Sequence record: NZ_CP137560.1
DNA from: a plasmid
Direction: 5' to 3' (one strand)
DNA: 64,000 nt
In this document: piece by piece, positions 36,396 to 52,657 of the stretch
Layout: each line of letters begins with the position of its first letter
How positions within the stretch are numbered: the stretch's first letter is position 1
The notes under the pieces: generated by a model
What the model was told of the DNA's origin: nothing
Database searches by the model: none
The model's input: the letters and a program-made list of their open reading frames with translations, nothing else
Program-made: the position numbers and the translations under genes

Positions 36396-39077
36396 TTATT
36401 GTTTACTTTGTTTCAGACTGGTTGGCTTTTGTTCCGTTTCCAGGGGAGAGCACTTCTTCATGGCCTGAAGACTGGCTTCTTCCCATCTTTGAAGAGCATA
36501 GGATGCAATCGTGTTCCTCAATCTCCTGGAAACCACATCGAATATTTGTCGCTTGAGAAAATCCAGAACACATTCCCTTTGTGTCATCACCTTTTCTATG
36601 AGAACCAACTGAGCATAGATGCGGGTCAGTTCTTGCTCCACATAGCGAGCCACCTGCAAACGGTCACTGGCCAAGAGCAGATGAATCCCATCTTCATCAT
36701 CCTCATCATCTTTTGTCTGGCTTTGATAGTTGTATCTCATGGAAATGCTACAGTTCGGCATGTCATCCATCCACTTGCGCATTCTCTCGTTGACTTCATC
36801 AGTCAGTTCCTTCTCACTCTTGTTCATGTCAAGCTGCATGACCTCCAATACATTTTCAGAGCTGCTACTAGAGGTTAGCTTAAAATCCACGGACAAGATT
36901 GCTCTATGGATGCGGATGCCCAATGCATAACGAGGCTTACGAGAAAGCTTCAACGTAGCTGTGTAAGTAACTTGACTTTTGGCATCCGGACAGTAAGCGT
37001 GTCTTACGAATACATATTCATCGCTCCCCTGAATCCATTCTCCTTCATCCGCCCACTGCAAGTGGTACATGGAAGCGAGGCTTGCCATGTTGGATGGGAT
37101 GCGATAGGAACCAGAAAGATTGTCGCCCAAGTCCTTGTAATAATCATCCAAAGCCTGATTGAGCTCAGAAAGCATGCGTTCTTTCTGTTGCAAGTCCTGT
37201 TTAAGCAGGGCGTTCTCATTGGAAAGAGCATTATACTCATCATCCAACTTATTGGCCAGCGGATAATTCTTGCTAAACTTGGCCTGTTGGATCCTGGAAA
37301 GGAGATTTTTCTGCTTTGTATCATTCTCCTTGATTTCAGCTTTCAAATTCGCTATTTGCTGATTGAGCTTATTTTGTTTTTCAATGAGTGCCTTAGAGGA
37401 ATCATCCGCCAAGTTGGGCGTTGCTTCCATGGCAAAGTCCTTGGACTTTGGCCATTCCAAGGAGCCACCTTGATTACCATTTTCTTTCCAATTGAAACTT
37501 CCTTCTCCCAAGGAGGCTCCATCCTCACAGGCTGCAAGGAAACTCACAGAAGAGCAGCCTTGCATCTTCCTTTCATCGGCCATAGTATAGTAGCGTGGAT
37601 TGTCACTGCCTAGCTTGAAAGAGATAGTAGGGTGTTCGCCAAGAAACTTTTCATGCTCATCGATAACACCCTGAAGCCTTGCCTGCATTCTCTTCATGAA
37701 GGTGGTCTTGTCCATGGTCTGTGAGTCAAATATTTCCTCATAAACATCTTCCCTGATATCCCATTGGTCTCTCACCTTAACACGGTAAGAATGGAAACAA
37801 TAGCGTTCATCATAAGAATGGCTGAACAAGCCTCCTCCATAGTGGCGGTTTCTGTCCTCATGTCTCTTAACATAGGTAATGGTGCAGTCATGACCAGGGT
37901 TTTGGATATTATACTCATTACATTTAGCCTCATTCCACTCACATCTTTGGAAAAGTTTGTCCTTGAGCTCGGTATCTTCCGCTTCAGTAAGATACTTGTA
38001 GCAAGGTATTACAGAATAGTTCTGTCGTTTTTTCCCACTGGAATGGACAAACCAATCAAGATTCCATCCTGCGTCTCCCCAATTGTTATATCCGGCAGGA
38101 TTGTAGTCGCAAAGTACTCTGCTTCCAGCATCTTGCTGATAGATATACCAACGTTGGGTATAATACTGTCCTTGCATTTCTTCTATATAGGAGGAAATAT
38201 AACCAGAAATATTATAATCACTGATTTGGAATAATTTATCCACTGTGGCTTCATCTCCTTCACCAATCACGGTATAAAGAATCTCCTTGACATTAGTAGC
38301 ATTCTTGAAGGATTTGTATTTATCCCTGAAACTCTCATAGAGTCTGGCTATCTCCCTGGGCTTGGCCTTAAAGATACCTCCAATTTTGGTGACATCCTCC
38401 AGATTATGGTCAATGGCCACCTTACCTGCTTGCGCAATCACGCTGCCCAAATGCTTGAAATCATCAGCGATGTCATCCTGGGAAATTCCCTTGCCAAACT
38501 CTCCAAGCTTAGAAAAAAGACTCTTCCAGTCCACATCAGCAAGCTGCGCCAAGTCGAATAACTTTTGAAGCTTCTCATTGATTAGCAAGAATTGGATATC
38601 CTTGAAGGAGAACTTGCCATTGGTGACCACGCACTCAAACTGTTTGCAGAGGTTTTCGACATTATGGGTGGTCTTATACAGATAAGGTCCCCAATAGAGT
38701 GCATTCTCTGGCTGCTTGATCATTTTGCCAGCCACTGTGATGAACTTAGGCATGATGCCATCCTTTACCAATCTGAATATTCTATGGTAATAGTAATTTT
38801 CCTCCGTGGCAAACAAGCCTGGATTCCGGCGGGCCTCTCTCTCTTTCTTCTTGCTCAGGAAAATGCCGGCAGATGCGATACCTGCCGTTTTGTAATGCTC
38901 CAGTATTTTACTGATATGTGTAGCTGTGTTGCTCTCCTCCAAGGCTTCCGTAGCGTAGGCTGCCGACATGGCTGCCGCCGTGGTATAATCCACGTTGACT
39001 GCGTGCCAGCTCAAGGCCTGCGCCCGAGAGAACAAAAATATGGCAAAACAAACGAATGCTATGATTTTACGCATCAT
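36396..39077 (-). CDS. Large secreted coiled-coil protein of unknown function immediately downstream of traG
   Basis: About 893 aa from MMRKIIAFVCFAIFLFSRAQA (signal peptide). It has a central heptad-rich region and no recognisable enzymatic motif, and abuts the traG stop. Confidence 0.55.
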   Translation of the reverse strand: MMRKIIAFVCFAIFLFSRAQALSWHAVNVDYTTAAAMSAAYATEALEESNTATHISKILEHYKTAGIASAGIFLSKKKEREARRNPGLFATEENYYYHRIFRLVKDGIMPKFITVAGKMIKQPENALYWGPYLYKTTHNVENLCKQFECVVTNGKFSFKDIQFLLINEKLQKLFDLAQLADVDWKSLFSKLGEFGKGISQDDIADDFKHLGSVIAQAGKVAIDHNLEDVTKIGGIFKAKPREIARLYESFRDKYKSFKNATNVKEILYTVIGEGDEATVDKLFQISDYNISGYISSYIEEMQGQYYTQRWYIYQQDAGSRVLCDYNPAGYNNWGDAGWNLDWFVHSSGKKRQNYSVIPCYKYLTEAEDTELKDKLFQRCEWNEAKCNEYNIQNPGHDCTITYVKRHEDRNRHYGGGLFSHSYDERYCFHSYRVKVRDQWDIREDVYEEIFDSQTMDKTTFMKRMQARLQGVIDEHEKFLGEHPTISFKLGSDNPRYYTMADERKMQGCSSVSFLAACEDGASLGEGSFNWKENGNQGGSLEWPKSKDFAMEATPNLADDSSKALIEKQNKLNQQIANLKAEIKENDTKQKNLLSRIQQAKFSKNYPLANKLDDEYNALSNENALLKQDLQQKERMLSELNQALDDYYKDLGDNLSGSYRIPSNMASLASMYHLQWADEGEWIQGSDEYVFVRHAYCPDAKSQVTYTATLKLSRKPRYALGIRIHRAILSVDFKLTSSSSSENVLEVMQLDMNKSEKELTDEVNERMRKWMDDMPNCSISMRYNYQSQTKDDEDDEDGIHLLLASDRLQVARYVEQELTRIYAQLVLIEKVMTQRECVLDFLKRQIFDVVSRRLRNTIASYALQRWEEASLQAMKKCSPLETEQKPTSLKQSKQ

Positions 39078-41979
39078 GATTTTTCTTGTCTTTAAAATTG
39101 AATACCTTTTGTTCCTTGAGAACAAGTTGGGCAAACTCCAGTGGCTTCTTTATGCCACTGAGTTTCCAGTCTCTGACGTAAGTCTCAAGTGCTACCTGAT
39201 AGTTCGAACGAAGCATTTTTTTATATAGCTTTAGAGCTTCCTTCTCTTGCTTTTCAGTGGTATACGCCATGTAGCACTCCGGTGGTTCCTCCACGCCAAA
39301 GACATCACCCACCAAACCGCGCTTGATGAAAACTTCCATGAAAGGAGAGCGATTGTCCTTATTGTCCAGGGCATTGATGGTAAATATCTTCTGACAGTCA
39401 TTATCTGTCAGCGCCAAGGCAGCCTTGATCTCCGAGAACTTGTCCTTGAACCTGCTCTGGTCCAAAAGCATGAACACATCTGAATTATTCACGATTGCTT
39501 CCTTAACAATAGGAGAGGAAGTAATATCCTGGATTTCCTGGGTAACAACACCTACCATCGCCCAATGCTTTCTGGCAGTCTTATAGAGATACTTGATGTA
39601 GTTGGCCATGACTGGAGTGGCGATGGCCTTCCATGCTTCCTCGATAACTAGGCATTTTCGACCTTTTTTAATACGCATTTTCTGCGTAAAGACATCCATG
39701 ATGATGAGGACAATAATAGGAAAGAGCACAGGATCATCCTTTACCTTGTCTATTTCGAAGACTATGAACTTTTCATCGAAAAGTGTACTGTCCAAGTCAT
39801 TGTTCAAAATGTTCTCCTGCTCGCCACCCTTATAATAAGGCTTCAGAATAGCCGCAAAGTCGTGGATGGGAAACTCAATGTTCTGCTGCAAGATGAGCTG
39901 AGGGATTCTCTCCAAGGCAAACTCATAATAAGAGTTGAAGGATAACTCCGCAACCTTTAAGTTCTTTCTTTGTCGTTCGATTTTATCAATCTTACGCTCA
40001 ATCCTCTGCAAGTAGTTTCTCTCCACCAACTCCGGAGTGAGTCTTTGGAGCTGTTTTTGTGCAGCTTCCTTTTCACCCTCTGTGGCAGCACTGTCAACCA
40101 CTAGGGCTTGGAGTTTACTTTTCAAACGTTCATTGCGTTCTATTGATGAATCCTGCTCCAGAGTTTGTTCCATCTTTTCTTCAAACTCTCTTTCATACTG
40201 GTCATATTTTCCATTCTTCTTATCCTCAAGAAGGATGATTTCCTTCATTTGCTTTCTTTCAATAGCATTGAAATGCTCAAAAGGATGGAAATACTCCTCA
40301 TAATACTCCGTAATAGTCTGATTGATAATGGTATCTTCTATCTTGGTAGGATAATCTGTGCCCTTGAAGAGTTGGAAGATAAGGCTCTTGAGAAAATTCT
40401 TCTTCTCGCCAAAGTTCTCCTCATACTCTATCTTGGAAATTTTGAAAGGGTTCATGGAAATAGGTTTTTCCTTACTGTAAGAGATATAAGTTCCCTCAAA
40501 GTAATGACAGATACCCTCATAGCTATCTCCAGTATCCACAATTACGATATCTGTATCTTGTTCAAAATACTGTCTCATCACGGTGTTCATAAAGAAACTC
40601 TTGCCGCTTCCAGAGGGACCAAGGACGAAGAAATTGGCATTGTTGGTATATTTAACCTTACCTTCTTTTCCTGTGGTGTCTATAGGCAATGGCACTCCTT
40701 GTCGGTCAGTATAGTAGCATTTCAAGGGTGAATCATCTCCTTTTTGCTGGTGCTCCTTATACATCAAACATAAGGCTGGCTCGGACAAGGTGAGGAACCT
40801 GTCATAATCCGGATTCAGCTTGAAGCAATTCCCAGGAAAGCTTGCCACGAAGAGTTCTAGCTGGTTATAGGCTCTCTTGGAAATGTGTATGTTGTGCTTG
40901 GAAAAGAGATTCTCCAAGGCATTTGTAGCCTTTTGGAAATCCTTACCTCCATCCAGTTTGATGACCATGTTATAGTGGGCATATACAAGCGTCTTGCCGT
41001 TGCGGGCTATTTCAGATTGCACCTTATTGATGTCCTCAACGGCAATCTGATTGTTAGAATTAGGAATGGAAGCATGTCTGTTCTTTTTCTTGTCCAGTTT
41101 CATCATCTCCTTTTTTTGGTTAGGAAGAAAGATGACCTGATTATATACCAAGGTATCTACATCACCAAGGCTATCTATGTTAGATAGTAAGTCTTCTGAG
41201 AAAGACGCATTGCCCACTTGATTCTCAGAGAAAGGACGAATCGTGCCAGGAAGTCCAGCTTGGTCCACATCCAAAAGACTATAGACCTTGACATGCTCGT
41301 TTCCCATACCTATTTCCTCGTTGGTAACCTTAAAGTTACTCATGGCTACTGTCTCATGCTTGAAGTCCATGGCAAAAAAGCGCTCGGTAAATTCCCTGCA
41401 ATCTTCTGCGCTAAGGAAACTGCATTCCACATTGTAACCTGTTAAACGGTCCGCAACTTTCTGGAGCTTGACCAAGAAATCCTTCCATTTTGCACTATCA
41501 TAGCTATGAATACTACCATTCTTACCTTTTTGGGTAACAATGAGATAAGTGAAATGCTCCGTATAAGTGCGTCCATTGAAGAAACGGAAATAAGAATCAG
41601 AAAGGAATCTTTTCGATGGATCTCTATCCTCCAAGGATGATATTTTTTTCATATCAAAGCGCTTGCGAACAAATATATCTTGCTTATGAAGGGCATAGCC
41701 TTCACCCAATATTTGCAGGATAGAGGCAAACAAAGTTGTGAAATCATAATAGCTGCTCTTCTCGGCAGAATACTTTCTTACGGGATTCGTCATTTTCAAG
41801 ATGGCAGAATAGTCTCCTCCCTTTGTATAGACAATTCCCATATCATTTGTATCCTCCACGCTGAAATAAATGTCCTCAAATATCTTGGCTCTTTTACCTC
41901 CGGTGCCAAAGGCATAAACAGAAATGGCCATACCTATGGAGATAGCCACGAGGATTGTTATCACTGCGATTGCAACCAT
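39067..41979 (-). CDS. traG: Conjugative transposon TraG, VirB4-family T4SS ATPase
   Basis: 970 aa with N-terminal TMs, Walker A FFVLGPSGSGKSF and Walker B ...CLVIEEAW. It lies downstream of traF. Confidence 0.9.
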   Translation of the reverse strand: MVAIAVITILVAISIGMAISVYAFGTGGKRAKIFEDIYFSVEDTNDMGIVYTKGGDYSAILKMTNPVRKYSAEKSSYYDFTTLFASILQILGEGYALHKQDIFVRKRFDMKKISSLEDRDPSKRFLSDSYFRFFNGRTYTEHFTYLIVTQKGKNGSIHSYDSAKWKDFLVKLQKVADRLTGYNVECSFLSAEDCREFTERFFAMDFKHETVAMSNFKVTNEEIGMGNEHVKVYSLLDVDQAGLPGTIRPFSENQVGNASFSEDLLSNIDSLGDVDTLVYNQVIFLPNQKKEMMKLDKKKNRHASIPNSNNQIAVEDINKVQSEIARNGKTLVYAHYNMVIKLDGGKDFQKATNALENLFSKHNIHISKRAYNQLELFVASFPGNCFKLNPDYDRFLTLSEPALCLMYKEHQQKGDDSPLKCYYTDRQGVPLPIDTTGKEGKVKYTNNANFFVLGPSGSGKSFFMNTVMRQYFEQDTDIVIVDTGDSYEGICHYFEGTYISYSKEKPISMNPFKISKIEYEENFGEKKNFLKSLIFQLFKGTDYPTKIEDTIINQTITEYYEEYFHPFEHFNAIERKQMKEIILLEDKKNGKYDQYEREFEEKMEQTLEQDSSIERNERLKSKLQALVVDSAATEGEKEAAQKQLQRLTPELVERNYLQRIERKIDKIERQRKNLKVAELSFNSYYEFALERIPQLILQQNIEFPIHDFAAILKPYYKGGEQENILNNDLDSTLFDEKFIVFEIDKVKDDPVLFPIIVLIIMDVFTQKMRIKKGRKCLVIEEAWKAIATPVMANYIKYLYKTARKHWAMVGVVTQEIQDITSSPIVKEAIVNNSDVFMLLDQSRFKDKFSEIKAALALTDNDCQKIFTINALDNKDNRSPFMEVFIKRGLVGDVFGVEEPPECYMAYTTEKQEKEALKLYKKMLRSNYQVALETYVRDWKLSGIKKPLEFAQLVLKEQKVFNFKDKKNHDA

Positions 41980-42007
41980 TGTTAGTTATTTTATTTGAAA
42001 TTTAAAT

Positions 42008-42307
42008 TTAATATTTATATGAATGGGCAAAGATAAAAATGCCCTTTGGCGTCTTTTTGGTATGGAGTCCCTTATGCTGCTTGATGAAAATCATGGTTCC
42101 ACCCACACCTACCATCGTGGTAAGGAGAATGAGTCCTACCAAAAAGCCAAAAACAATATAGCCTGCAAGAAAGGATAGCAGCCCTCCTCCCACGGCTCCT
42201 GCGGCCCAATAGATGTATCTTCCCTTCAGTCCCATGAATTCAAGGGGCTTTTGAAGCCCCTTGAAAACAGGGAAATCTGGGAATTTCTCCTGTTCTGCTG
42301 TATTCAT
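42008..42307 (-). CDS. traF: Conjugative transposon TraF-like (DUF4133-type) small membrane protein
   Basis: 99 aa with two TM helices (GAVGGGLLSFLAGYIVFGFLVGLILLTTMVGVGG). Confidence 0.6.
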   Translation of the reverse strand: MNTAEQEKFPDFPVFKGLQKPLEFMGLKGRYIYWAAGAVGGGLLSFLAGYIVFGFLVGLILLTTMVGVGGTMIFIKQHKGLHTKKTPKGIFIFAHSYKY

Positions 42308-42317
42308 AAACTAATGA

Positions 42318-42402
42318 TTACAGACCAAAGAACAAAGGCAAGCTCTGAGCTGCGGCAATGAGGAAGATACAAGCACCTACTATCAGCATGATGCTCTTCT
42401 TG
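42318..42402 (-). pseudogene. traE: C-terminal remnant of a TraE-like (DUF4134-type) gene cut off by IME-C
   Basis: ...QQDFKKSIMLIVGACIFLIAAAQSLPLFFGL* matches the C-terminal TM of TraE-like 54531-54884. Its N-part is at 54167-54390. Confidence 0.55.
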
Positions 42403-42652
42403 AAATCTTGCTGATTGTTCGTAACGTACTGATAATCAACACTGATTGGAATGATAAAATGACGAAAGAAACAAATTAGGAACAACATAATTGAGAAACC
42501 CCAAAATGAAAGTATGGGAAAACAAAAATTAACATAGAAAACAACGGAATTTTTCCGATTTTGGCATTCATAAATCAACTACAAAAGAAGAATCTTATAA
42601 GTAGGTACATCTGTTTTCATTTTAACAGAATATAGTGATATGCAAGATAAAG
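42403..42652 (+). repeat. About 250-bp direct repeat, copy 1 (IME-C left terminus)
   Basis: Near-identical (about 95%) to 45433-45682 with scattered mismatches and small indels. Confidence 0.8.
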
Positions 42653-43024
42653 AGGGAAAGAGTCACTGTAAATCATACAAAAATCAATGGGATTTCCAAT
42701 TAGACAAATTATTTTCGCTTTTTATAATGATTTTCGGATTTAACAAACGATATTTGGAGAAGAATGAGTATTTTTGCAACCGAAAACAAAAATAATATAC
42801 GCAATGGCTTACGGAAAATCGTTTGTCAAGATTCCAAAATAGAATCACTCCGTCTTGGATAAAAGATATGGGGGAAAACGAGATTTTTGTGTTTGCCAGT
42901 AATGTCAACGGTTATCATGGAGGTGGACCTCATGTGAATTTTGAAACACTGAAGCCAAATCCCAACAAACCTGGAAAGATGATGGTTGATCAAAATTATC
43001 ATGTTTTCATAACCGAATAATAGA

Positions 43025-43285
43025 ATGAAAAAAGTCACATTAAATGTTCCGAATTATTCCCCTGATACCGGAGTGGCACTCAATTGGGAAGGTAATTTCA
43101 CAATTAAGGTCTCCGATATAAATGGGAGCGTCTCAATTGAGGCTAATACCGAGGGATTAGTTTCTTTAGCAAATCACTTGCTAAATTTATCCCAATCATC
43201 GGTTCCTATAGGAACTCATCTTCATCTTGATGAGTACAACTCTCTTGAAGAAGGATCTTTAGATTTAATAATCGAAAAGATTTGA
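43025..43285 (+). CDS. Small hypothetical protein, immunity-like, in the toxin/immunity island
   Basis: 86 aa, compact, follows a short possible toxin-tip ORF (42823-43020). Confidence 0.35.
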   Translation: MKKVTLNVPNYSPDTGVALNWEGNFTIKVSDINGSVSIEANTEGLVSLANHLLNLSQSSVPIGTHLHLDEYNSLEEGSLDLIIEKI

Positions 43286-43348
43286 TTCCAATAAGTCTGT
43301 TTATGGGTCTGACAATACGATCCATAAACAAATCTAATAGATTAACAG

Positions 43349-43699
43349 ATGATTGAAGATATGTTCTTTTGCGTTCTTTCAATTGTAGTGGGAGGCTATT
43401 TAGTGTCTCAAAAATTAAGAGCTATTTATAATAGACTCCCCCTTTCTCTAAAAGATAAGATTTCTTTTGGGGAAGGACTCATCCTAATTATATCTGGGTT
43501 CATTGCATTATATGTGAAATCGGCTATACCAATTAATGCTTTGCTTTTTGGGTGTTTCCTACTTCCGAAAATGTATCAACAAGAAAAGTATTGGAATGCT
43601 CGTCGTTTTACAACCGCATACATAATGCATTGTAGCGGTTGGATTTTAAGTATAGGGCTTATTATCTATGGTATTCTCCAATTATTTCAGCCTATATAA
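43349..43699 (+). CDS. Small multi-TM membrane protein (immunity-like)
   Basis: 116 aa with 3-4 predicted TM helices. Confidence 0.35.
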   Translation: MIEDMFFCVLSIVVGGYLVSQKLRAIYNRLPLSLKDKISFGEGLILIISGFIALYVKSAIPINALLFGCFLLPKMYQQEKYWNARRFTTAYIMHCSGWILSIGLIIYGILQLFQPI

Positions 43700-43740
43700 A
43701 TTGTAAGAACATAGATTAGTTCAACAATAAAACAAATTCA

Positions 43741-44118
43741 GTGAGGCTATGTTTAAAAAAAATTGAAAATCGAATTGTTATCACACCGCCTTCAGGCATG
43801 ACTGTTGAGCAATTTGATGAGATGGTTATTAAAACAGGTAATAGCTTTGGAAATAATCCCAATATTACATACTGTTTAGAGCCATTCGAACAAACACAAG
43901 GTAATTGTAATTCAAGTTCAAGTACGTTGCTTTATAAAGCGGGGGTTCCTTTAAGTAGGATAAAGGATTTGAGGAAGCAAATATCAGGTTTTGTTTGGGG
44001 ATTTGGTGATATTAAACCGTGGACAGTAGAGGAACAGTCAAAAGCTGTTCAGAGGCAGAGGGAATTCGACCAACTCCGTAATGAAATGATGAACACAATC
44101 ATCCTTAACAAATATTAA
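43741..44118 (+). CDS. Hypothetical protein, possible orphan toxin C-terminal module
   Basis: 125 aa. Its stop abuts the start of the next membrane ORF, a toxin-immunity-like spacing. Confidence 0.3.
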   Translation: MRLCLKKIENRIVITPPSGMTVEQFDEMVIKTGNSFGNNPNITYCLEPFEQTQGNCNSSSSTLLYKAGVPLSRIKDLRKQISGFVWGFGDIKPWTVEEQSKAVQRQREFDQLRNEMMNTIILNKY

Positions 44119-44595
44119 ATGAGAAAATTGAGTTTTAAAATGGTCATAAGAGCATATTTAATATGTGCTCTTATGACATCAATATTAGGAATTATATCAT
44201 GCAGTGTTCATGACATAATAAATTGGTTTCCAATCGTATTACTTTATGCTTGGATAATATTGTCTCCAATATCTATTTTAGCATTGATAACTGTATATTT
44301 ATTGGGAGTTCAAAGAGATTGGATTTGTAAGATACCGTTAATTTGCTTATGCGCATTTATAGTATATTTTATAAACCTAAACTCATCAGAATCTTATTTG
44401 ATTAATTTTTTTGCAACCCAAACCGTACCATATGACCTTCTATATTACAATAATGGAATAGAGATAAGGGTCAATGACACTATTTTTTCTATTTTCACAT
44501 GGGTATTATCGTATTTTATATTAGTATTGCTTATTGTTATATCTACAATTATGTATAGATTTTTTAAAAAGCATAGCAAAATAAAATTATTCTAA
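44119..44595 (+). CDS. Multi-TM membrane protein (immunity-like)
   Basis: 158 aa with 4 hydrophobic helices, in an AT-rich context. Confidence 0.35.
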   Translation: MRKLSFKMVIRAYLICALMTSILGIISCSVHDIINWFPIVLLYAWIILSPISILALITVYLLGVQRDWICKIPLICLCAFIVYFINLNSSESYLINFFATQTVPYDLLYYNNGIEIRVNDTIFSIFTWVLSYFILVLLIVISTIMYRFFKKHSKIKLF

Positions 44596-44639
44596 AATAA
44601 AGTGTTCTCATTAGTGATGATACTAAATCATTCTGTACA

Positions 44640-45434
44640 ATGCTCACCATCCAGCACAGCGGCCCAGACGGTGAGATTACCACCACCTTCGAGTACGACG
44701 GCATACAGCGCCTTGTTCGTGTCACCGACATGGAGGGCAATGTAACGACCTCTACTTACGACATGGGTGACCGCCGTACTGAGGTGAACCATCCTGCAAG
44801 CGGCATCACAAGTTTCACTTATGATGCGCTCGGCAATGTGCAGACTAAGCAGACTGCCAACCTTGCCAAGGAAGGAAAGTTCATTACTTACGATTACGAC
44901 TATCAGCGTCTGACGGGTATCAACTACCCAGACCATCCGGAGAACAACGTGAAGTATTACTATGGTGGTCGCAACGCCTCTCAGAACCGTATCGGTAGAT
45001 TGATGCTCCGCGAGGACGGAACAGGTGCCATTGAGTATTTCTATGGCAAGATTGGCGAGGTGACGAAGACCCGCCGCACGATGATTGTGCCTAACCAGGC
45101 GATAGCAACCTACGTGACGCAATGGACTTACGACAGCCACAACCGTCTGTTGGAGATGATTTATCCTGATGAGGAGAAAATCACTTACTCTTACAATCTC
45201 GGTGGTCAGCTTGAAAAGGTCCATGGCTACAAGTCATACGGCTATGACTATGTGAGCAAGATTGGCTATGACAAGTTCGAGCAGCGCAGCTACCTGAAGT
45301 ATTGCAACGGCGCGGAGACATTCTACACCTTCGACAACCGCCGCCGTCTCAGCAATCTCGCGGTCAACAGCGGCAACACGTCCATCATGGACAATGACTA
45401 TACGTTTGACGCGGTGAGCAATGTCCTCTCTTGA
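44640..45434 (+). pseudogene. Internal fragment of an Rhs/YD-repeat protein, truncated at both ends
   Basis: YD repeats (TSTYDMGDRRTE, FTYDALGNV, TYDYDYQRLTGINYPD, TYSYNLGGQLEKV). It is GC-rich relative to its surroundings, has no start context, and ends exactly at the second copy of the direct repeat. Confidence 0.8.
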
Positions 45435-45682
45435 ATCTTGCTGATTGTTCGTAACGTACTGATAATCAACACTGATTGGAATGATAAAATGACGAAAGAA
45501 ACAAATTAGGAACAACATAATTGAGAAAACCCCCAAAAAAAGTATGGGAAAACAAAAATTAACATGGAAAACAACGAAATTTTTCCGATTTTGGCATTCA
45601 TAAATCAACTACAAAAGAAGAATCTTATAAGTAGGCACATCTGTTTTCATTTTAACAGAATATAGTGATATGCAAGATAAAG
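45433..45682 (+). repeat. About 250-bp direct repeat, copy 2 (internal to IME-C)
   Basis: See 42403-42652. Confidence 0.8.
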
Positions 45683-45818
45683 GTAACTATTCAGTTCACC
45701 ACTACACAGAATGATAAGATTGCTTAATAAATACGAAATAGTATAAACTTGTTTAATAAAAATAACAACATGTTTGTTTTTGGACTATATTTACAACAAA
45801 TTTTAAAATTTATCAATT

Positions 45819-46178
45819 ATGTATATGGCTAATACTGCTACGGATACGTTGTCAACGGAAACCATGAATCCTCCAAAAGGTTCTTATGTCAATATGGTTG
45901 GTCAAGCGACAGGGAAAAGAGTAAGTGGAACTATCTCCAATGTTTCATATGATGTTCTTAATGCAAGTAAGAAAGTGTTGCTTCAAGATGTTTATCTTGC
46001 GACATATACTTCAAAAAGCGGTGATAGTGGGGGTATTGTATATGCTCTACGTTCAGCACACAATCAACGTCTAACTGTAGGTATAAATATAGGTTCTGCA
46101 AAAATTAACCGTACTACTTATGGCATGTGTGTAAAAGCATCGAATATAAATAGAATTTTTGGACTTACAAGATACTAA
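45819..46178 (+). CDS. Trypsin-like serine protease C-terminal fragment, possible orphan toxin domain
   Basis: Active-site Ser context TSKSGDSGGIVYAL (GDSGG). 119 aa, missing the His/Asp half of the fold. Confidence 0.5.
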   Translation: MYMANTATDTLSTETMNPPKGSYVNMVGQATGKRVSGTISNVSYDVLNASKKVLLQDVYLATYTSKSGDSGGIVYALRSAHNQRLTVGINIGSAKINRTTYGMCVKASNINRIFGLTRY

Positions 46179-46187
46179 AGGGCTGTC

Positions 46188-46697
46188 ATGAATTTCTTAT
46201 TTAAGACATTTTGCATTATGGTCATATTCACGATGTTCGTGGATATGACCGCTCTAAGTAATAACATAACGAATAGAGATGGTTTATGGCGTGTTGATTC
46301 AGACTCCGTCACAATTACCACAAGCTATAGTGAGAAACAGCCAGAAAAATTAAATGTATGCATTTATAATCACAGCAATTCGACGATATATATAGGGCGA
46401 ACTTATGGATTGTTGATGCAAGTAGATGGGGAATGGAAATACATTGCCAAAGGTAGAAATCAAAAGTGCATAACTATATGGCCAGCGTCAAAACGTAACT
46501 TTCAAGTCAGTCTATGCGCTAAGAAAATAAAAAGCTCCTCTGGATGGGCATATAGAACAGATTCACTTTACAAAGTAAGATTTGACATGTATGACAGCGA
46601 TGGCGTTTTTATTGACAAAATGGACTCTGATTTCAAAGTTTCTGGTAATATTGTTTGGCATCTGACTGACGGATTAGTGATTATACATTTAGATTGA
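46188..46697 (+). CDS. Secreted small protein (immunity-like)
   Basis: 169 aa with an N-terminal signal/TM, 10 bp after the protease fragment. Confidence 0.4.
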   Translation: MNFLFKTFCIMVIFTMFVDMTALSNNITNRDGLWRVDSDSVTITTSYSEKQPEKLNVCIYNHSNSTIYIGRTYGLLMQVDGEWKYIAKGRNQKCITIWPASKRNFQVSLCAKKIKSSSGWAYRTDSLYKVRFDMYDSDGVFIDKMDSDFKVSGNIVWHLTDGLVIIHLD

Positions 46698-46706
46698 ATA
46701 TTCCAA

Positions 46707-47111
46707 ATGCGACATCTCAATTCTTCAATATACGTAGATTGGTTGGATCCATCAATGCCCGCTCGTACATGTGGAAGAACAGCAGAAAATATAAAAGAGA
46801 AAATAAAAAAATATGATAAGTTTATACTTGTTGCTACAGAAGGTGCTATTGCGTCAAAATGGTGCAATTGGGAATTAGGCTTTGGTGATGCTCAAAAGTA
46901 TGCTTACGGTAAAATAGCCTTATTTCCTATCCGTTATGACGAAAAGGATTGGTCAGAAAGTGAATACTTAGAACTATATCCTGTTATAGGATATATTGAT
47001 AGTTGTCAATATTCGGATGAGTTTAATCAATCCCTTTTTACAGGTTATTATGTTTTTTGTCATTATGGCACGAAGAAGGCAATAAAATTGGTTGATTGGT
47101 TATCGAGATAA
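46707..47111 (+). CDS. TIR-like domain fragment
   Basis: DKFILVATEGAIASKWCNWELGFG resembles the TIR beta-C/alpha-C region (S.WC..EL). The N-terminal part of the domain is absent. Confidence 0.35.
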   Translation: MRHLNSSIYVDWLDPSMPARTCGRTAENIKEKIKKYDKFILVATEGAIASKWCNWELGFGDAQKYAYGKIALFPIRYDEKDWSESEYLELYPVIGYIDSCQYSDEFNQSLFTGYYVFCHYGTKKAIKLVDWLSR

Positions 47112-47169
47112 TAATAGAAATCGCCTAACTTTAAGTGCAAACTTAATGTTAGGCAGTAACTCGTCTATC

Positions 47170-47772
47170 TCATATATAGTTCTGTGCAATTATCATTCCA
47201 ACACCTCCTGCAACAACAAAGATACCAATCGTGAAGAAAAAACAAAAGAACCATTGTGCATAGTGACCGAGATAGCAACCATCATATTCCTTGTAGCGTT
47301 CACGGACTTTCTTCCGTTCATCGGCAAACATGGAATTGACCTCACGGATATGCATCTGCATCTGTGCGGTCATCCATTGGCGTTCTTTGGCAAACAGTTC
47401 TTGGATTTTCTGCCAGTCAGCATCATTGACATTTACAGACACCTTTAATTTAGTGGAAGCATTCTCCAAGACCTTGTCTATGTGCTGATTGATGGTATCT
47501 ACCTTTTTGCCGATGGTAGTCACAGCACCACCCAATTGAACTTCCGAACGCTGATACTGCTGAATGGCAGACTCCAGTTCAAGTGTGGCATTGATGAAGG
47601 TGTCGGTTGCCTTATCAATGTCCTTACTCAACTGCTTCAACTCAGGAACACGGTTTACAAGTCCGTCTTCGGCTTGCTGTTCCTCGACCTCGTTTTCGAC
47701 ATCATTCATCATGTTGTCGAAGTCGGATCTTTCTTCTGTGTCTATGTTTATCTTGCTTTTTCTGATTGCCAT
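47170..47772 (-). CDS. mobC: MobC-like mobilization protein with a C-terminal TM
   Basis: 200 aa, homolog of 30157-30777. Confidence 0.6.
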   Translation of the reverse strand: MAIRKSKINIDTEERSDFDNMMNDVENEVEEQQAEDGLVNRVPELKQLSKDIDKATDTFINATLELESAIQQYQRSEVQLGGAVTTIGKKVDTINQHIDKVLENASTKLKVSVNVNDADWQKIQELFAKERQWMTAQMQMHIREVNSMFADERKKVRERYKEYDGCYLGHYAQWFFCFFFTIGIFVVAGGVGMIIAQNYI

Positions 47773-47784
47773 ATTGTTATTGAT

Positions 47785-49017
47785 TTATCGGTGGAAACTT
47801 CTACTGCGTGGTTTAGGCTTGCACATGGAATGAGCCATCTGTGCGCAACGGTGGGCAAACTTCCAGTCATCTTCATCGTCTTTCTTTCCCCAACCAGATT
47901 CAGGAGAAGAACCGCCACCGCCACATGACTCAGACATGGAAGTGGCTGCATCAATGTACCCTGCAAACAACAGCATTGCTACATGAGCGACATTCTCCGT
48001 TGTCGCTATATCATTATCCTCTGGAATCTGAGCCTCATTAGTAAAGACATCTTTGACAGAGTTCGGAATCCACACCTTCTTGACTCCATCGCCAATGTTA
48101 ATTTGGAATGCTGTTTTTGAAGGTTGAACTTGTGCCTTTGGTTGTGATGCTGTTGAAGTCTGAGCGACAGGACGAACTGGGCGAGGCGTTGAAGCAACGG
48201 ATGGTGAAACAGGCTTTTCCTTGACCTGTGTAGGTTGTGGGTGCAGTTTCTTCCATGTGTCTTCAATCTTTGACACCATGTACTTTCTGCCAATCTCAGA
48301 AGCCTTGAACACGGAAGCGTTCTTGCCGACTGTATAGCCGACAAGTTTCCGCTGCTTGTCGTAACGAGGTTTAACCTCATAGCCTTTCATGCGCAACAGA
48401 TTGAAATATCTGTCAATGTTGAACTGCTGCATATCTTTGAGGATATGTTCGCAATCCTCCGCAAGTTCAGCCTTTCGCATATTCCGAATCTCCTGCGGTT
48501 GTTCCCATCCATGGCGCTTATTGATGATTTCCGCAGCCTTCATTGCCCGAAGGTGAATATCGTGTACATCATTGGTCTTACCCTCCATATCCACACGACA
48601 ACAATCAATGTGAAGGTGCAGCATTCCAGACTTGGAATCAGAGTGCAGTCCGCCCACATTCATAGAATTGGTGAAGTTGGTCTTTATTTCATTGGAGAAA
48701 CCGTTGGGCGAAAGTCCAACAGAATCCAAAACTCCCAATGCTTCGTCTTGGAGGTTTGCCCAATCTGCCATCGTGAAGTTTGCAGACTCTTCCTTTGATG
48801 GGGAAAGTACAAAAGTGGTCATGAACCTTTCCAACTTTCTGCCAACCGTCCTTTCCGCCTGATGATACTGGCAATGATGCTTCATCATGTACCAGATGGC
48901 GGTAGGGTCAAGACCATCGGGCATGTTGTTCACCTTGACCGTCTTTGCCTTCTCCTTTTCCAATGCGTACCTTACGGAATTGCCTCCATACGATACGACC
49001 TTTGCGAGCATAATCAT
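47785..49017 (-). CDS. mobB: Relaxase/mobilization nuclease (MobB type) with a poly-Gly/KKDDEDD tail
   Basis: MIMLAKVVSYGGNSVRYALEKEKAK..., HxH (MLHLHIDCCRVD), C-terminal SESCGGGGSSPESGWGKKDDEDDWKFAHRCAQMAH. Confidence 0.85.
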   Translation of the reverse strand: MIMLAKVVSYGGNSVRYALEKEKAKTVKVNNMPDGLDPTAIWYMMKHHCQYHQAERTVGRKLERFMTTFVLSPSKEESANFTMADWANLQDEALGVLDSVGLSPNGFSNEIKTNFTNSMNVGGLHSDSKSGMLHLHIDCCRVDMEGKTNDVHDIHLRAMKAAEIINKRHGWEQPQEIRNMRKAELAEDCEHILKDMQQFNIDRYFNLLRMKGYEVKPRYDKQRKLVGYTVGKNASVFKASEIGRKYMVSKIEDTWKKLHPQPTQVKEKPVSPSVASTPRPVRPVAQTSTASQPKAQVQPSKTAFQINIGDGVKKVWIPNSVKDVFTNEAQIPEDNDIATTENVAHVAMLLFAGYIDAATSMSESCGGGGSSPESGWGKKDDEDDWKFAHRCAQMAHSMCKPKPRSRSFHR

Positions 49018-49424
49018 GATTGTTCCTTTGATTTTGTCTGTACGTTTGTTGCGATATTCTCTTCAATGCTATACCAATGTTGGATAAGTCCTGCAACGGC
49101 ATCAATCCACCAACGCATGAACTTCTCATTCTTGAAGAACCGAGCCTTTTCCTCAGCCGTTTTCTTGGATAGCACGTTGCTGATTTTTATCAAATCCGTC
49201 CTTGCGATGGCGAGAGAGTTGAGAGCGTCCACCTCTTCCTTGGTGAGCCTCATGCGTGGACGGTGCTTTAAGCCAGTCTCAACGACATAGCGGCTCAGGC
49301 TTAACCCACACTCCTTGGCATGTGTCTGGAGACGTTTCAATTCCTCTTCCGTGCATCGGTAGGTATGGACTTCCGTAGGCGGTTTTCTTATGATGTTCTT
49401 CTTTCTCATTTGTTCTTGTCTCAA
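49014..49424 (-). CDS. mobA: MobA/MobC-type relaxosome accessory protein
   Basis: 136 aa, homolog of 31979-32380. Confidence 0.65.
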   Translation of the reverse strand: MRQEQMRKKNIIRKPPTEVHTYRCTEEELKRLQTHAKECGLSLSRYVVETGLKHRPRMRLTKEEVDALNSLAIARTDLIKISNVLSKKTAEEKARFFKNEKFMRWWIDAVAGLIQHWYSIEENIATNVQTKSKEQS

Positions 49425-49503
49425 ATTAAAATGGGATGATTACAAGCATCTTACAAAGGTGGTCACGACTGCGAGCCTGCGAGTAGTCCGAGAAACTTTT
49501 AGG

Positions 49504-49534
49504 AATACAGAAAGACGGACACGGCTTCTGTATT
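49504..49534. other. Candidate oriT hairpin AATACAGAA-(13 nt)-TTCTGTATT upstream of mobA (IME-C)
   Basis: 9-bp perfect inverted repeat. The conserved GCGAGCCTGCGAG is at 49471-49483. Confidence 0.4.
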
Positions 49535-49694
49535 ACAAAAGGATTTCTCGAAAAGTACCTATAAAATGACGGCACTTTTAACAGCCTCCGTCCCCAAGGC
49601 TGCTTAAACGTATAACAGTTGGGCGGTAGCCTATGGCGGTTAATCGTCCTTTGGGATGATTTTTATGTATAGTGGCTTATTTGCCTCTGTATGC

Positions 49695-50519
49695 CTATTG
49701 ATTGCCGTTATGGTATTCGTTAGGTTTGTAGCCATTGGCATTAGAACCGTTCGACTGTTGTGTTTGACCTCCAAACTGATGCTGTGGATATGTGTTGTGC
49801 TCTCCCTCATTCTGTTTGGCATCTGCTTCTTGCAGGGAAGAAGGATTGCCAACAGACTGTCTGGAGTAGTTTTGCTGTGGAGAAATTCCACCAGTAATAG
49901 CATCGGAAAGATTGCCATTAGTTCCGATCTTACCCACGCTTCCATTATCATTAGATGAAGCCGAATTTAGGGAAGAAGAAATATCTGCCGTAGAAGAATT
50001 GCCCTTTTTGTCTGTATCGGATATTCCATTGGAAAAATGCCCATCTTCCTTGTCCGACTTTGTATCAACCCCCGTTGTCGTAACAATTACTCTTACTTGT
50101 GGAACTTCCGTGTGGATGATTGCAGAGCCATCAGTATTGCGCTTCAATGAAAATCCGTTCTTGAAAAATCTTCCGTCCACATACCAACCAGAGAGGGAAT
50201 GCAGGGTAATGATGCGGTTGTCTCCAACTTTTTGTGAAGAGGAAATCCCCACAGCCTCCATAGCCTGTAAAAGTTTGGGTACGGTCTTGCGGTCTTTATC
50301 CCAGAGTTTGGCAAGTTGGGTATTGTCAACCATACATTGCCCACACAAGATTTCCACTTGTTGGGTCTTGCTGATAGGTACAAGTGTTGTTTCACGTTCG
50401 GCAAGAGAGGCAAGAGACATGAAGCATTCCATGCGGTCAATCTTGTACTTCTTGCAGCGAAGATACTCCATCTGTACATCGGACAGCGTGAAGTAGTAAT
50501 GTATCTTTTGTTTATCCAT
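49695..50519 (-). CDS. IME HTH-domain protein (paralog family) with a long Ser/Asn/Gly-rich tail
   Basis: LAKLWDKDRKTVPKLLQAMEAVGIS HTH. Homolog of 18410-19066 and 32552-33202. Confidence 0.5.
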   Translation of the reverse strand: MDKQKIHYYFTLSDVQMEYLRCKKYKIDRMECFMSLASLAERETTLVPISKTQQVEILCGQCMVDNTQLAKLWDKDRKTVPKLLQAMEAVGISSSQKVGDNRIITLHSLSGWYVDGRFFKNGFSLKRNTDGSAIIHTEVPQVRVIVTTTGVDTKSDKEDGHFSNGISDTDKKGNSSTADISSSLNSASSNDNGSVGKIGTNGNLSDAITGGISPQQNYSRQSVGNPSSLQEADAKQNEGEHNTYPQHQFGGQTQQSNGSNANGYKPNEYHNGNQ

Positions 50520-50583
50520 CTTCTGTAAATTTTGAATATTATAACCATAAATGGCAAGACTGTTTTTCTCAGTAAAGAGAAAA

Positions 50584-50901
50584 TCATCTGTGCCGTCCTC
50601 TCCTTGGGGAAATGTCCTCTGCTATAACATAGAGCTCGCCTTGCAACCTGTCATTAGAATGGCTGCTTAATCGTGAAATGCACTCAATGCAGACAGACTG
50701 GGCAAGAAGTTTTCTTCTTCCGACAGTTGCTTCATCATTGATGCCCTTGTTGGCTCCGCATTGTTCGGCAAGCTGATTGAAAGCATCACGCATCCGAAAG
50801 TAGCCGTTGCCAGTATTGATGTAGCTCACGGCAAGGTCAGCGACATTCGCCAACTTGCTTCTGTACTCCTCATGGGAAATATCGTCCTTCATCATCGCCA
50901 T
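50584..50901 (-). CDS. Small conserved IME protein of unknown function
   Basis: 105 aa, positional homolog. Confidence 0.45.
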   Translation of the reverse strand: MAMMKDDISHEEYRSKLANVADLAVSYINTGNGYFRMRDAFNQLAEQCGANKGINDEATVGRRKLLAQSVCIECISRLSSHSNDRLQGELYVIAEDISPRRGRHR

Positions 50902-50903
50902 GT

Positions 50904-51221
50904 CTATTTACAAAGTTCACTCATGTGCTTGGTCGCTGCAGCCTTGGTCTCAGCCTCGGACATACTGCGGTTCTGGCGCATCCAGTTCAAAAGTTCGGAC
51001 TTCTCAAAGTAGATAATCTTGCCGTTGGGACGGAAGAACGGAAGTTCATGCTTGTGTGTCATCTTGTAGAGACTACTCTTTGATATACCCATGAATAAGG
51101 CTGCTTCCTCCAGTGTCAATACTTGCTTGGCATCACGGAGTAGGTTCTCCATTATCCCAATGCGGTGCTCATGTGACTCTACCTTCAAGAGAAGAGTCTC
51201 GGTGTCGATAGTTTTGTTCAT
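50904..51221 (-). CDS. Excisionase-family HTH protein (xis-like)
   Basis: LTLEEAALFMGISKSSLYKMTHKHELPFFRPNGKIIYFEKSELLNWM. Confidence 0.75.
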   Translation of the reverse strand: MNKTIDTETLLLKVESHEHRIGIMENLLRDAKQVLTLEEAALFMGISKSSLYKMTHKHELPFFRPNGKIIYFEKSELLNWMRQNRSMSEAETKAAATKHMSELCK

Positions 51222-51360
51222 TATCCTGTAATTTATTGTTTGTAATTCGTTGTACTGCTTGTTTTGAAAGTGTAGTCCCCCAAGACAGAGAGAATTCCCT
51301 GCCCGAAAAATGGGGACTACAAAAGTGAAATTTACTGGTTGTTATCCTGAAAAGTTCCGT

Positions 51361-52626
51361 TTACTTGTTATCCTGTAAAAAAGTTATTCTGCGTGGATGG
51401 GTGTTGGTGGCTGCTGTCCGCTTTGTCCTCGGTATTTGCTTGTTCTCCTCACGCTGTTTGCGACCTCGAAAGGCTTTCTTCGTGTTGTCAACAGCCTTGA
51501 CCTTTTCATTCGTCAGCACATCTGCATAGATGGCGGTGGATTTGAGCGACTTGTGTCCCATCAGTTTCTTGGTAGTCTCAATGTTGCCGGTAACCGCCTG
51601 CACCAAAATTCCGAATGTATGTCGGGAACAGTGAAAAGAGATATTCTTCTCAATGCCCACCTTTTTGGCTATCCTTTTAAGGGCAGCATCCACATTAGCC
51701 TTAGCAGGAAGGTGGAACACAAAATCATCATCACCTTTGGGTGGCATCCATGACAAGGCGGTATTGCCGATTGGTACGGCATTGAGAGCCTTTGTTTTCT
51801 TTTGGACGATTACAAGCGTGTTCGTTTCCTTGTTTCTCTTGATGTCACTCCACCGCAGAGCCTTGATGTCGCTTATACGAAGTCCTGTCAGACAGGCGAA
51901 ACCGAAAGCCTTTTGTGTCTCTGCAACTCCTGGACTTCTCTCATCTGAAGCCATGAACCTTTTCAGTTCATCGGGAGTGAGATACTGCTTATGTGATGAC
52001 TTTGGCTTGGGAAAGATGTCAGACTTCTCCAACAGGTAGAAAGGGTTAGCCTTCAATTTACCGAACTTGACAGCCTTGTTGAATACCGCCACTGTGCGCT
52101 GTTGAACATTGTGAAGCGAGCCTTCACACAAAGGCTTGGCTTCAACTCGTACATACTTCTGTGGTACATAGTCGTTCTTCAGCCAAAGGAAGAAAGCCTT
52201 GAACCATTCCTTGTCGAACTTCCTCAGAGTGATGTGAGGTCTGCGCTTGTTGGCAAGGAACTCGCTCATTAGGTATTTCAAATACTTTGACTGGTCAACA
52301 ATAGCCTTGGAGTAGTCTGTATTGTCGCTCATCCAGTCGATGTAAGTCTGGATCCAGTCCATGACTTCGGGAGACTCGTCATTGGGGATTTCCTTCACAA
52401 TCATCAAGTGACCTACCTCTGGGATGGTCTCTGGATGAAGAATACGCTCTGCCCTTATCTGGTGAGCACGTTGCAATGTTTCTTCGTTTCTTGCTTTGGT
52501 CTCTGCATCAACCTCTGGCAACAAATAGAGAGAAAGAAATTCAAACTTGCGCTTGCCACCATCGTAGATGTCAAGATACAAGCTTATGTTGTCGTTGGCA
52601 AGTGCCTTTTGTCTGATAGTTATTGT
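51361..52626 (-). CDS. Tyrosine integrase, second of a tandem pair
   Basis: Start taken at MTITIRQKALANDNISLYLDIYDGG. C-terminal HCSRHTFGIL...LMGHKSLKSTAIYAD. Confidence 0.85.
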   Translation of the reverse strand, partial: TITIRQKALANDNISLYLDIYDGGKRKFEFLSLYLLPEVDAETKARNEETLQRAHQIRAERILHPETIPEVGHLMIVKEIPNDESPEVMDWIQTYIDWMSDNTDYSKAIVDQSKYLKYLMSEFLANKRRPHITLRKFDKEWFKAFFLWLKNDYVPQKYVRVEAKPLCEGSLHNVQQRTVAVFNKAVKFGKLKANPFYLLEKSDIFPKPKSSHKQYLTPDELKRFMASDERSPGVAETQKAFGFACLTGLRISDIKALRWSDIKRNKETNTLVIVQKKTKALNAVPIGNTALSWMPPKGDDDFVFHLPAKANVDAALKRIAKKVGIEKNISFHCSRHTFGILVQAVTGNIETTKKLMGHKSLKSTAIYADVLTNEKVKAVDNTKKAFRGRKQREENKQIPRTKRTAATNTHPRRITFLQDNK

Positions 52627-52657
52627 CATGTCTATATATATATTCGTTGTCAATGAT

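Follow-up and report, generated by a model that had tools for sequence, protein, structure and literature searches.

Arrays of orphan toxin tips and immunity genes situated downstream of full-length rhs genes reportedly occur in Enterobacteria and many other bacteria. The tyrosine integrases of CTnDOT- and NBU-type elements of Bacteroides possess arm-binding domains and are relaxed in target choice. The AID-1, AID-2 and rAID-1 systems of gut Bacteroidales consist of orphan immunity genes that are clustered in low-GC segments of mobile DNA and are believed to defend their hosts against the contact-dependent toxins of neighboring cells, including the GA1-3 effectors of type VI secretion systems (T6SS) (Ross et al., bioRxiv 10.1101/471110). 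The rAID-1 class is defined by a 5′ XerD-like recombinase that is ≥44% identical to BF9343_RS08045 followed by at least two co-directional genes with a GC content ≤41%, and displays short repeated intergenic motifs between the immunity genes (bioRxiv 10.1101/471110). Among mobilizable elements, MTnPi1, MTnPi2 and MTnPi3 of Prevotella intermedia encode two tandem tyrosine integrases and a relaxase and vary in their accessory genes; they integrate within coding sequences at a loose 11-bp att sequence (TTAC/TTGC-N5-AA) and excise constitutively (Naito et al. 2016, PMC4755523). Nested and accreted integrative mobilizable elements (IMEs) and cis-mobilizable elements (CIMEs) have been reviewed (Guedon et al. 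2017, PMC5704250). The locus described here occupies positions 42,403–47,111 of a 64,000-nucleotide stretch of plasmid sequence record NZ_CP137560.1 (hereafter the window), and forms the cargo slot of an IME of gut Prevotellaceae that interrupts traE of a host integrative and conjugative element (ICE). The slot contains two stacked blocks, cargo A (42653–45433) and cargo B (45683–47111), each preceded by a copy of the left attachment (attL) arm of the IME. Probably, a sister IME inserted into Rhs-derived cargo of a resident IME and the intervening backbone subsequently was deleted.

The conjugation genes traG (VirB4-type; 39067–41979) and traF (DUF4133; 42008–42307) were assigned with Pfam on the minus strand to the left of the repeat, and the neighboring traE gene was recovered as two parts at opposite ends of the element (Table 1). 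The separate halves scored 71 and 36 bits against DUF4134, whereas joining them in silico at QD/FKK generated a single match of 106.8 bits that spans positions 2–93 of 93. The rejoined TraE shows weak similarity to TrbC/VirB2 pilins. The DNA between the halves (~42404–54165, 11.8 kb) includes two tandem integrase genes (51361–52677 and 52658–53830) whose products each possess Arm-DNA-bind_5, SAM_5 and Phage_integrase domains according to Pfam, as well as genes for a relaxase and a NikA-like MobA protein; oriT was not located. A survey of open reading frames (ORFs) with Pfam revealed no tra or other transfer-apparatus genes between 42404 and 54165. As the split DUF4134 halves flank 11.8 kb that carries integrase and mobilization genes without a transfer apparatus, the element is an IME within the VirB2-like pilin gene traE of a host ICE. 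Both ends are marked by the imperfect 16-nt direct repeat TTCTTGA(A/C)ATC(T/C)TGCT, in silico removal of the IME rebuilds DUF4134, and more than 25 distinct left flanks among related loci testify to movement. The backbone is 93–95% identical in isolates of Segatella copri, Leyella stercorea and Prevotella merdae. Exact-protein look-ups with the relaxase and with the 200-aa mobilization protein yielded no record, and no Rfam family was detected within 41500–55000.

The integrases are of the phage/CTnDOT type. As with CTnDOT and NBU, they combine Arm-DNA-bind_5, SAM_5 and catalytic domains, and the family uses many targets in which a short motif lies beside a variable crossover region. In contrast to those elements, the two integrases are in tandem and insertion is preferentially into a tra gene that belongs to another element. 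The closest described counterparts are MTnPi1-3, which share the two integrases, the relaxase and the loose in-gene sites, a likeness drawn from the published description of these elements, which are from genus-level relatives. They differ in that the att core here is TTCTTGA-M-ATCYTGCT, and neither a preference for traE nor Rhs/immunity cargo has been reported for MTnPi elements. A literature search retrieved no description of the present element, of traE-targeting IMEs or of the duplicated arm.

The original prediction, made from the DNA letters without database searches, described the region as IME cargo bracketed by 250-bp direct repeats. The repeats are real: they comprise 249 nt, are 97% identical and lie 3030 nt apart, with no third copy in the window, and the region is indeed cargo of an IME. 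Related loci (designated L001 onward) were collected in three ways: by exact-protein look-ups, by scanning metagenomes for a 28-mer that is invariant in the repeat (33 loci), and by a relaxase search of species-representative genomes (54 loci from S. copri, L. stercorea, P. merdae and rumen Prevotellaceae). In all of the ~100 loci the arm begins at the identical nucleotide (AATCTTGCTG) and the DNA to the left differs, which bears out the suggestion that the repeat is a conserved element end. The left flanks comprise more than 15 alleles of the traE 3′ end from at least four ICE lineages, in which traF and traG are only 65–85% identical to those of the window, and about a dozen other genes, among them ppx, an IS982-like transposase gene, mobA at codon 8 and several unassigned genes, together with two different positions in Rhs genes. 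These flanks share the approximate motif CATGATnTTCTTCTTGA. Two family members with different cargo and mobilization genes of ~80% identity occupy exactly the same non-traE chromosomal site (L045 at 5783; L050/L051/L057 at 7055), and this site therefore is a recurrent secondary attB. At the other end of the IME, the boundary of the right arm also is fixed while the right flanks vary (L009, L069, L070, L073, L074, L076, L096). The 249-nt repeat thus is the attL arm of the IME, and at its outer boundary site-specific recombination has joined it to traE alleles and to secondary sites that resemble them. Arm conservation across the family is confined to the first ~165 nt (83–85% identity in isolate genomes). 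The motif GAAA(A)CAA is clustered in both arms, with three copies in the left (42467–42545) and about five in the right (53979–54024), and these copies may be arm-type binding sites for the N-terminal domains of the integrases.

All cargo ORFs between and after the arms are on the plus strand and are AT-rich (GC 0.29–0.35), with the exception of the Rhs fragment at 44640–45433 (GC 0.52). Cargo A opens with a leader that also is present in L009, L017, L020, L026–L030, L041, L043 and others. A simple TAnnTTTG scan produced one plausible Bacteroidetes −7 box within it (TATTTTTG at 42769), which is a weak pointer to a promoter; a sigma-70 promoter scanner was left aside because Bacteroidetes promoters differ. 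After the leader, the C-terminal remnant of a giant Rhs toxin is fused to the first codons of an unrelated gene. The Imm32 gene starts 4 nt past the stop codon of this stump, and the identical Imm32 protein is encoded 4 nt behind the full-length Rhs genes of L001 (3019 aa) and L007 (3314 aa), whose giant products contain SpvB, TcdB_mid, FG-GAP and YD-shell domains. The same Imm32 protein was listed in 10,703 index blocks. Further along, positions 43766–44809 are 97.7% identical to L001 12467–13510, a segment in which the end of a toxin tip and a membrane-protein gene are followed by the beginning of another Rhs core fragment. In L001, 12467–12819 is the end of an 812-aa orphan Rhs protein whose ~220-aa tip starts after YYGARYY at residue 575. 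This correspondence identifies the 125-aa ORF as half of a toxin tip and the abutting 158-aa membrane protein as its immunity protein. No toxin partner was found for the 116-aa membrane ORF, and the exact protein was seen only inside the composite of the two cargo blocks. Pfam and NCBIfam contained nothing for the 116-aa, 125-aa and 158-aa ORFs. The Rhs fragment that closes cargo A aligns with an internal part of the 3019-aa Rhs protein from ~residue 2112 (L001 7273–8058, 88.7%). No full-length rhs gene and no other Rhs sequence are present in the window, while such genes are present in L001, L007 and L010–12.

Both tip remnants (42910–43020 and 43766–44118) start well after the YYGARYY core-end motif by comparison with L001. 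As both lack their 5′ halves and this motif, the tips cannot be re-armed by recombination. Cargo A is the remainder of an Rhs polymorphic-toxin locus in which both toxins are dead, with tips reduced to 3′ stumps, and two immunity genes are intact. Relatives of the outer element can be larger: orphan Rhs genes are complete in L027 and L041. In L017 (891–11036) and L030, an outer-type arm and leader are followed by a gene for an AraC-like regulator, four fimbrial-type lipoprotein genes and a gene of 747+ aa whose end matches sequence upstream of Rhs genes. These arrangements suggest that the element, in very large versions, includes an entire Rhs delivery locus. Because L027, L041 and L017 hold far more cargo, the version in the window is a deletion derivative. 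As in Rhs orphan arrays, GC-rich core fragments alternate with AT-rich tip and immunity modules in which the immunity gene directly follows the tip, and the same modules are found behind full-length Rhs genes in related loci. Unlike such arrays, the window is devoid of a full-length rhs gene, the tips have lost their 5′ halves, the array is on a mobilizable element, and the parent proteins are SpvB/TcdB_mid/FG-GAP giants of Prevotellaceae rather than PAAR/VgrG-linked T6SS effectors.

Cargo B has a different background. Its first ORF, of 119 aa, retains the start codon of a 401-aa gene that is found in full form in L010–12, L016, L022, L031, L034 and L046. The sequence coding for the lipoprotein signal and for the catalytic His and Asp has been lost through an in-frame deletion of 836 bp that lies between two AATTATGTATA copies. 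The 401-aa protein has an LASC lipobox, a pro-region and an S1 domain with TAGH, DAAF and GDSGG motifs, matches PDB 2oua (E = 0.016) and displays a weak NCBIfam match to Rv1815. The 169-aa ORF begins 9 nt later, and the protease gene is always directly before the 169-aa gene. Only ten representatives of the 169-aa family were obtained in an exhaustive HMMER search; the 169-aa protein itself has a weak Pfam match to Big_14. Its single-sequence AF2 model was poor (pLDDT 50) and an eight-sequence model reached pLDDT 69, with ~80 in the core, for which only generic Ig-like/beta-sandwich structural matches were retrieved (TM 0.3–0.4). From the position of the gene, the protein may be a protease inhibitor. 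As P. merdae possesses a 31%-identical protease followed by a small lipoprotein in the same slot, the protease and its small partner constitute a conserved two-gene module.

The last ORF of cargo B corresponds to residues 57–190 of a 190-aa TIR-domain family, with the first 56 residues missing. It matches PDB 8btn_B (E = 4.6e-8) and is 92% identical to P0001 over residues 57–190. In sister IMEs the full-length TIR gene adjoins the same mobilization gene and is accompanied by a helix-turn-helix (HTH) gene, a DNA methylase gene, RE_HpaII, a ThsB_TIR-like gene and a 147-aa gene. On this comparison, the truncated ORF is a leftover of phage-defense-type cargo. Dcm-type restriction-modification genes occupy the slot in other isolates. 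As the same backbone carries restriction-modification or other cargo in these isolates, the slot is a general cargo bay with layered leftovers.

The entire segment had been viewed as a graveyard of polymorphic toxins and immunity genes, which is apt for cargo A and not for cargo B. Thus, the trypsin-like ORF was rejected as a polymorphic-toxin tip: it is indeed a GDSGG-bearing S1 remnant, as foreseen, but was generated by an internal deletion in a stand-alone lipoprotein protease, and the closely following small protein was correctly noted and has an N-terminal hydrophobic helix. The TIR fragment also was rejected in this role because its full-length form lies in the defense-type cargo of sister IMEs; the assignment as a TIR fragment, by TIR_2, was accurate. 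Four small or membrane-spanning ORFs had been grouped as tip and immunity pairs. Two are immunity genes located behind tips, with homologs that follow Rhs genes in L001 and L007 (Imm32) or in L001 (158-aa gene) as expected; one is a solitary membrane ORF and the 125-aa ORF is itself a tip. The Rhs fragment, said to have no start, begins with ATG and is called by gene callers, yet is an internal core piece.

The Rhs fragment ends exactly at the base before the second arm copy, as the original prediction had observed. Uninterrupted Rhs copies continue as DAVSNVLSV(V/I/T)N, and the window reads ...DAVSNVLS at the point where the arm begins. The internal junction therefore joins Rhs coding sequence to a left arm, with neither a traE core nor a right arm. 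As the arm starts at the same nucleotide as in all other insertions, the inner arm is a product of integrase action at a weak secondary site, in keeping with the integrase-mediated origin that had been offered as one of two alternatives. The identical junction exists in L009, L011–13, L016, L018, L019, L022, L031, L034, L035, L040, L046, L047 and L050–L059, and in L011, L012 and L016 the full Rhs locus is upstream. A second, independent insertion of an IME in Rhs DNA is at the core end GLYYYGERYYF (L010, L025). The simple forms of both components also were found. L023 represents the type ii form (traE, arm, cargo B), and L027 and L041 represent the type i form (arm, Imm32, orphan Rhs up to the mobilization genes); in L041 the Rhs site is uninterrupted.

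The most economical history that we infer from these forms is insertion followed by backbone deletion. A resident type i IME with the Rhs fragment in its cargo would have been invaded by a sister type ii IME bearing cargo B, whose usual attP core would have recombined with a weak secondary site within that fragment. In the nested intermediate, GGACTAAGATATTCTTGA is predicted to precede the remainder of the Rhs fragment (...GTGGTAAACGGTGCGTCAG). Homologous recombination between the near-identical mobilization and integrase backbones then would delete the intervening DNA to produce the order arm, cargo A, Rhs stump, arm, cargo B and a single backbone. The composite now moves as one unit via the outer arm. 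The element may owe its persistence to the retained immunity genes, which would shield the host from the Rhs toxins of neighboring Prevotellaceae; the linked toxin genes have decayed. The probability of this explanation as a whole, including the two-layer slot, the backbone deletion and immunity-based persistence, is put at roughly 70%.

The composite, with an arm spacing of 3028–3031 nt, was found at no fewer than six sites (the window, L052/L056, L054, L035/L020/L053/L055, L050/L051/L057, L059 and L009). The settings include three traE lineages and at least four non-traE sites, namely beside mnmE (L053/L055), beside Mem_trans (L050/L051/L057), beside MatE/PS_pyruv_trans (L059) and in a mobA gene (L009). 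As the same structure recurs at these sites, it is the whole composite that transposes, from the outer arm. L060 and L059 occupy the same chromosomal site, and L060 is L059 minus exactly one arm and cargo A; the pair constitutes with and without forms as expected for recombination between direct arms. Several points weigh against the proposed history. No contig with the nested intermediate, in which a right arm adjoins the rest of the Rhs fragment, was found, so that the order of events and the homologous deletion have the standing of inferences. The Rhs secondary site shares only ~7–9 of 16 bases with the traE site. The difference between L059 and L060 could be a gain rather than a loss, and both are from metagenome assemblies, where 250-bp repeats can mislead assemblers. 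The exact arm 28-mer had no matches in 185,579 representative genomes, which contain diverged arms only, and the composite thus is known only from metagenomes and the window. The 116-aa, 158-aa and 169-aa immunity candidates are without family or structural assignment, and the protective role of the retained immunity genes is a prediction.

The L059/L060 pair also can be accommodated by a different, rather unlikely, scheme in which the attL arm is an active site at which the tandem integrases excise and insert arm-plus-cargo units as small circles, with integron-like stacking and exchange. The unit here would be the 3.03-kb arm, immunity array and Rhs stump, and co-resident sister IMEs, which would meet via their shared ICE pilin gene target and each other's Rhs cargo, would swap modules. 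Exact presence or absence of one arm and cargo A at a single site is the outcome expected of such a platform, but RecA-dependent recombination of 249-nt repeats that are 97–99% identical explains L060 equally well. Moreover, the single informative single-nucleotide polymorphism near the core in L060 has the copy-1 allele, so that the exchange was not at the core if L059 was the parent. A contig in which 20 nt of the end of the Rhs fragment are followed by an arm and then by cargo A (L061, 1–300) fits a 3.03-kb circle or a tandem duplication of the arm and cargo A, but could also reflect an assembly path induced by a repeat longer than k. The two independent arm insertions in Rhs DNA, and the GAAA(A)CAA motifs in both arms that could bind the arm-binding domain of an integrase, also favor active arms. 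In contrast, only two types of right flank accompany the full 249-nt arm where an active system should show many, and the integrases are 4–6 kb away at the other end and on the opposite strand, unlike in integrons or rAID-1. The integron layout of an integrase gene beside attI and a promoter with attC cassettes was not found, an inverted-repeat scan detected nothing cassette-like, and the integrases are of the phage/CTnDOT type. If true, this scheme would mean that mobile poly-immunity islands of the gut can be assembled by a second route that does not involve integrons.

Tandem accretion of two elements at one att site in traE, after which the left element lost its recombination and mobilization genes to become a CIME-like remnant, was the other alternative in the original prediction. 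It would account for two direct attL arm copies in one orientation and for a left block without integrase and mobilization genes, and IME accretion is well documented in other phyla (PMC5704250). Accretion brings the right end of one element beside the left end of the next at a shared att, but the DNA to the left of the inner arm is Rhs coding sequence rather than a traE core or right arm, right-arm sequence occurs only once in the window, and the same Rhs-arm junction is present where the full Rhs locus is upstream (L011, L012, L016). Without a traE core or a right arm at the internal junction, accretion at one att site is excluded, or at best very improbable. The resemblance to nested IMEs and CIMEs is of a more general nature: one element is inside or beside another, att-type sequences are duplicated, and remnants lack recombination genes. 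The locus differs in that the inner site is a secondary target in Rhs cargo and only the left arm is duplicated.

There is very little prospect that the repeat is a generic dispersed sequence or a duplicated 5′ promoter piece of traE whose minus-strand ORFs (86 and 124 aa) are real genes. It is true that the ORF in copy 1 continues in frame into the 3′ end of traE and terminates in ~12 TraE-like residues (YVTNNQQD versus YVKMNNEEQD), but only two copies are present in the window, every locus has the same distance and orientation of the arm to the mobilization genes with a fixed outer boundary, and diverged arms carry in-frame stops. The last observation implies that the ORFs are not genes, and a hybrid TraE protein accordingly was rejected. 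The stretch that looks like traE reflects the similarity normally seen between attP and attB, since an intact traE 5′ half is present at the opposite end of the IME. Misjoining of the second arm and the Rhs fragment during assembly is scarcely credible, since more than 12 independent assemblies, which differ in study, assembler and outer flanks, contain the composite with its 3028–3031-nt spacing, even if Rhs and IME sequences exist in multiple copies and the ends of many related contigs lie close to the junctions.

The locus has immunity genes without functional cognate toxins on a mobile element, which is AID in the broad sense. In common with AID clusters, these are low-GC orphan immunity genes on mobile DNA, and Imm32 is among the Zhang-type families that define AID. 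Membership of rAID-1 was rejected on architecture. The GC content is low enough (0.31–0.35), but the recombinases are at the far end and on the opposite strand instead of first, short motifs between immunity genes were not found as the only repeat is the 249-nt att arm, there are two to four candidate immunity genes, and the toxins concerned are Rhs proteins. Orphan immunity islands are thought to shape survival in contact-dependent warfare in the gut and have been described mainly for T6SS toxins of Bacteroides. The locus extends this logic to giant Rhs toxins of Prevotellaceae, including relatives of Segatella copri, with immunity genes that ride a small mobilizable element common in human gut metagenomes and whose matching toxin genes have decayed. 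It also documents an IME family that prefers the pilin-like traE of conjugative elements and whose integrases use many look-alike secondary sites, such that insertion of one member in the cargo of another generates stacked cargo with recombinogenic direct repeats. None of these steps is without precedent; the locus is of value as a well-resolved example from nature and as a source of testable toxin and immunity pairs.

Table 1. Coordinates of the IME, its cargo and the interrupted traE gene in the window.
Feature	Positions	Strand	Details
traE/DUF4134 3′ end, last 28 codons and stop	42318–42403	−	Pfam DUF4134 positions 58–93
attL core, TTCTTGA/AATCTTGCT, junction between 42403 and 42404	42394–42412		Imperfect direct repeat at 54159–54175
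Left (attL) arm copy 1	42404–42652		Family-wide conserved part 42404–42568; GAAA(A)CAA motifs
Leader of type i elements, with first 29 codons of a gene of 203 aa elsewhere (L043)	42653–42909	+	Common to other loci
C-terminal toxin-tip remnant of giant Rhs, ~last 32 codons	42910–43020	+	98.8–99.5% identical to L001 and L007 Rhs 3′ ends
Imm32 immunity gene, intact, 86 aa	43025–43285	+	Pfam Imm32, E = 3e-16
Multi-pass membrane ORF, 116 aa, candidate orphan immunity gene	43349–43699	+	No family match
Rhs tip 3′ half, last 117 codons (125-aa ORF; homology from 43766)	43741–44118	+	97.7% identical to L001 12467–12819
Intact membrane protein, 158 aa (140 aa from internal start), immunity gene	44119–44595	+	Same place behind 812-aa orphan Rhs, L001 12874–13296
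Rhs/YD core fragment, 264 codons	44640–45433	+	Five RHS_repeat matches (Pfam); 3′ end cut by sister-IME integration
Left arm copy 2, attL of inner type ii element	45434–45682		97% identical to copy 1; secondary site in Rhs DNA
S1 (alpha-lytic-protease-like) lipoprotein protease, internally deleted, dead, 119 aa	45819–46178	+	GDSGG; 836-bp in-frame deletion
Protease partner, intact, 169 aa	46188–46697	+	N-terminal hydrophobic helix, beta-sandwich core
TIR-domain gene, 5′-truncated, 134 aa	46707–47111	+	TIR_2 positions 27–118/122
Mobilization module: 200-aa protein, relaxase (410 aa; MobA/VirD2-type), NikA-like MobA	47170–49424	−	Pfam
HTH_17 excisionase-like gene and two tandem tyrosine integrases	50904–53830	−	Pfam
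Right arm and attR core (TTCTTGACATCCTGCT at 54159–54175)	53831–54175		Constant end, variable right flanks
traE/DUF4134 5′ part, ~100 codons	54166–54469	−	DUF4134 positions 2–70

In one related locus (L009, 1–330), the NikA-like mobA gene of one IME copy is interrupted at ~codon 8 by the same end of a second IME; one family member thus disrupts another. The host ICE contains two tandem DUF4134 (traE-like) genes at 54531–54884 and 54166–54469, of which the IME splits the downstream gene; the upstream gene is intact and might keep the ICE transfer-proficient. Directly after traG, a 912-aa ORF (36396–39134) has no Pfam family and only weak coiled-coil-type NCBIfam matches, and its position is kept in the related ICEs L052, L054 and L056 (852–872 aa). 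A second mobilization module at 30157–33958, comprising genes for a 206-aa mobilization protein, a 407-aa relaxase and an HTH_17 protein, is homologous to that of the IME and adjoins the tra genes at 34116; no integrase gene was seen beside it. Homologs of the segments at 1181–2222 and 20117–20362 adjoin each other in the related ICEs L023 and L043, and the ~18 kb between them in the window (~2222–20117) thus is another insertion into the host ICE. To the right of the conjugation genes, six tRNA genes spaced 4–6 nt apart (57808–58301; Ser-gct, Arg-acg, Ser-tga, Gln-ttg, His-gtg and Thr-tgt) could be either a tRNA array borne by a mobile genetic element or the chromosomal boundary of the ICE.

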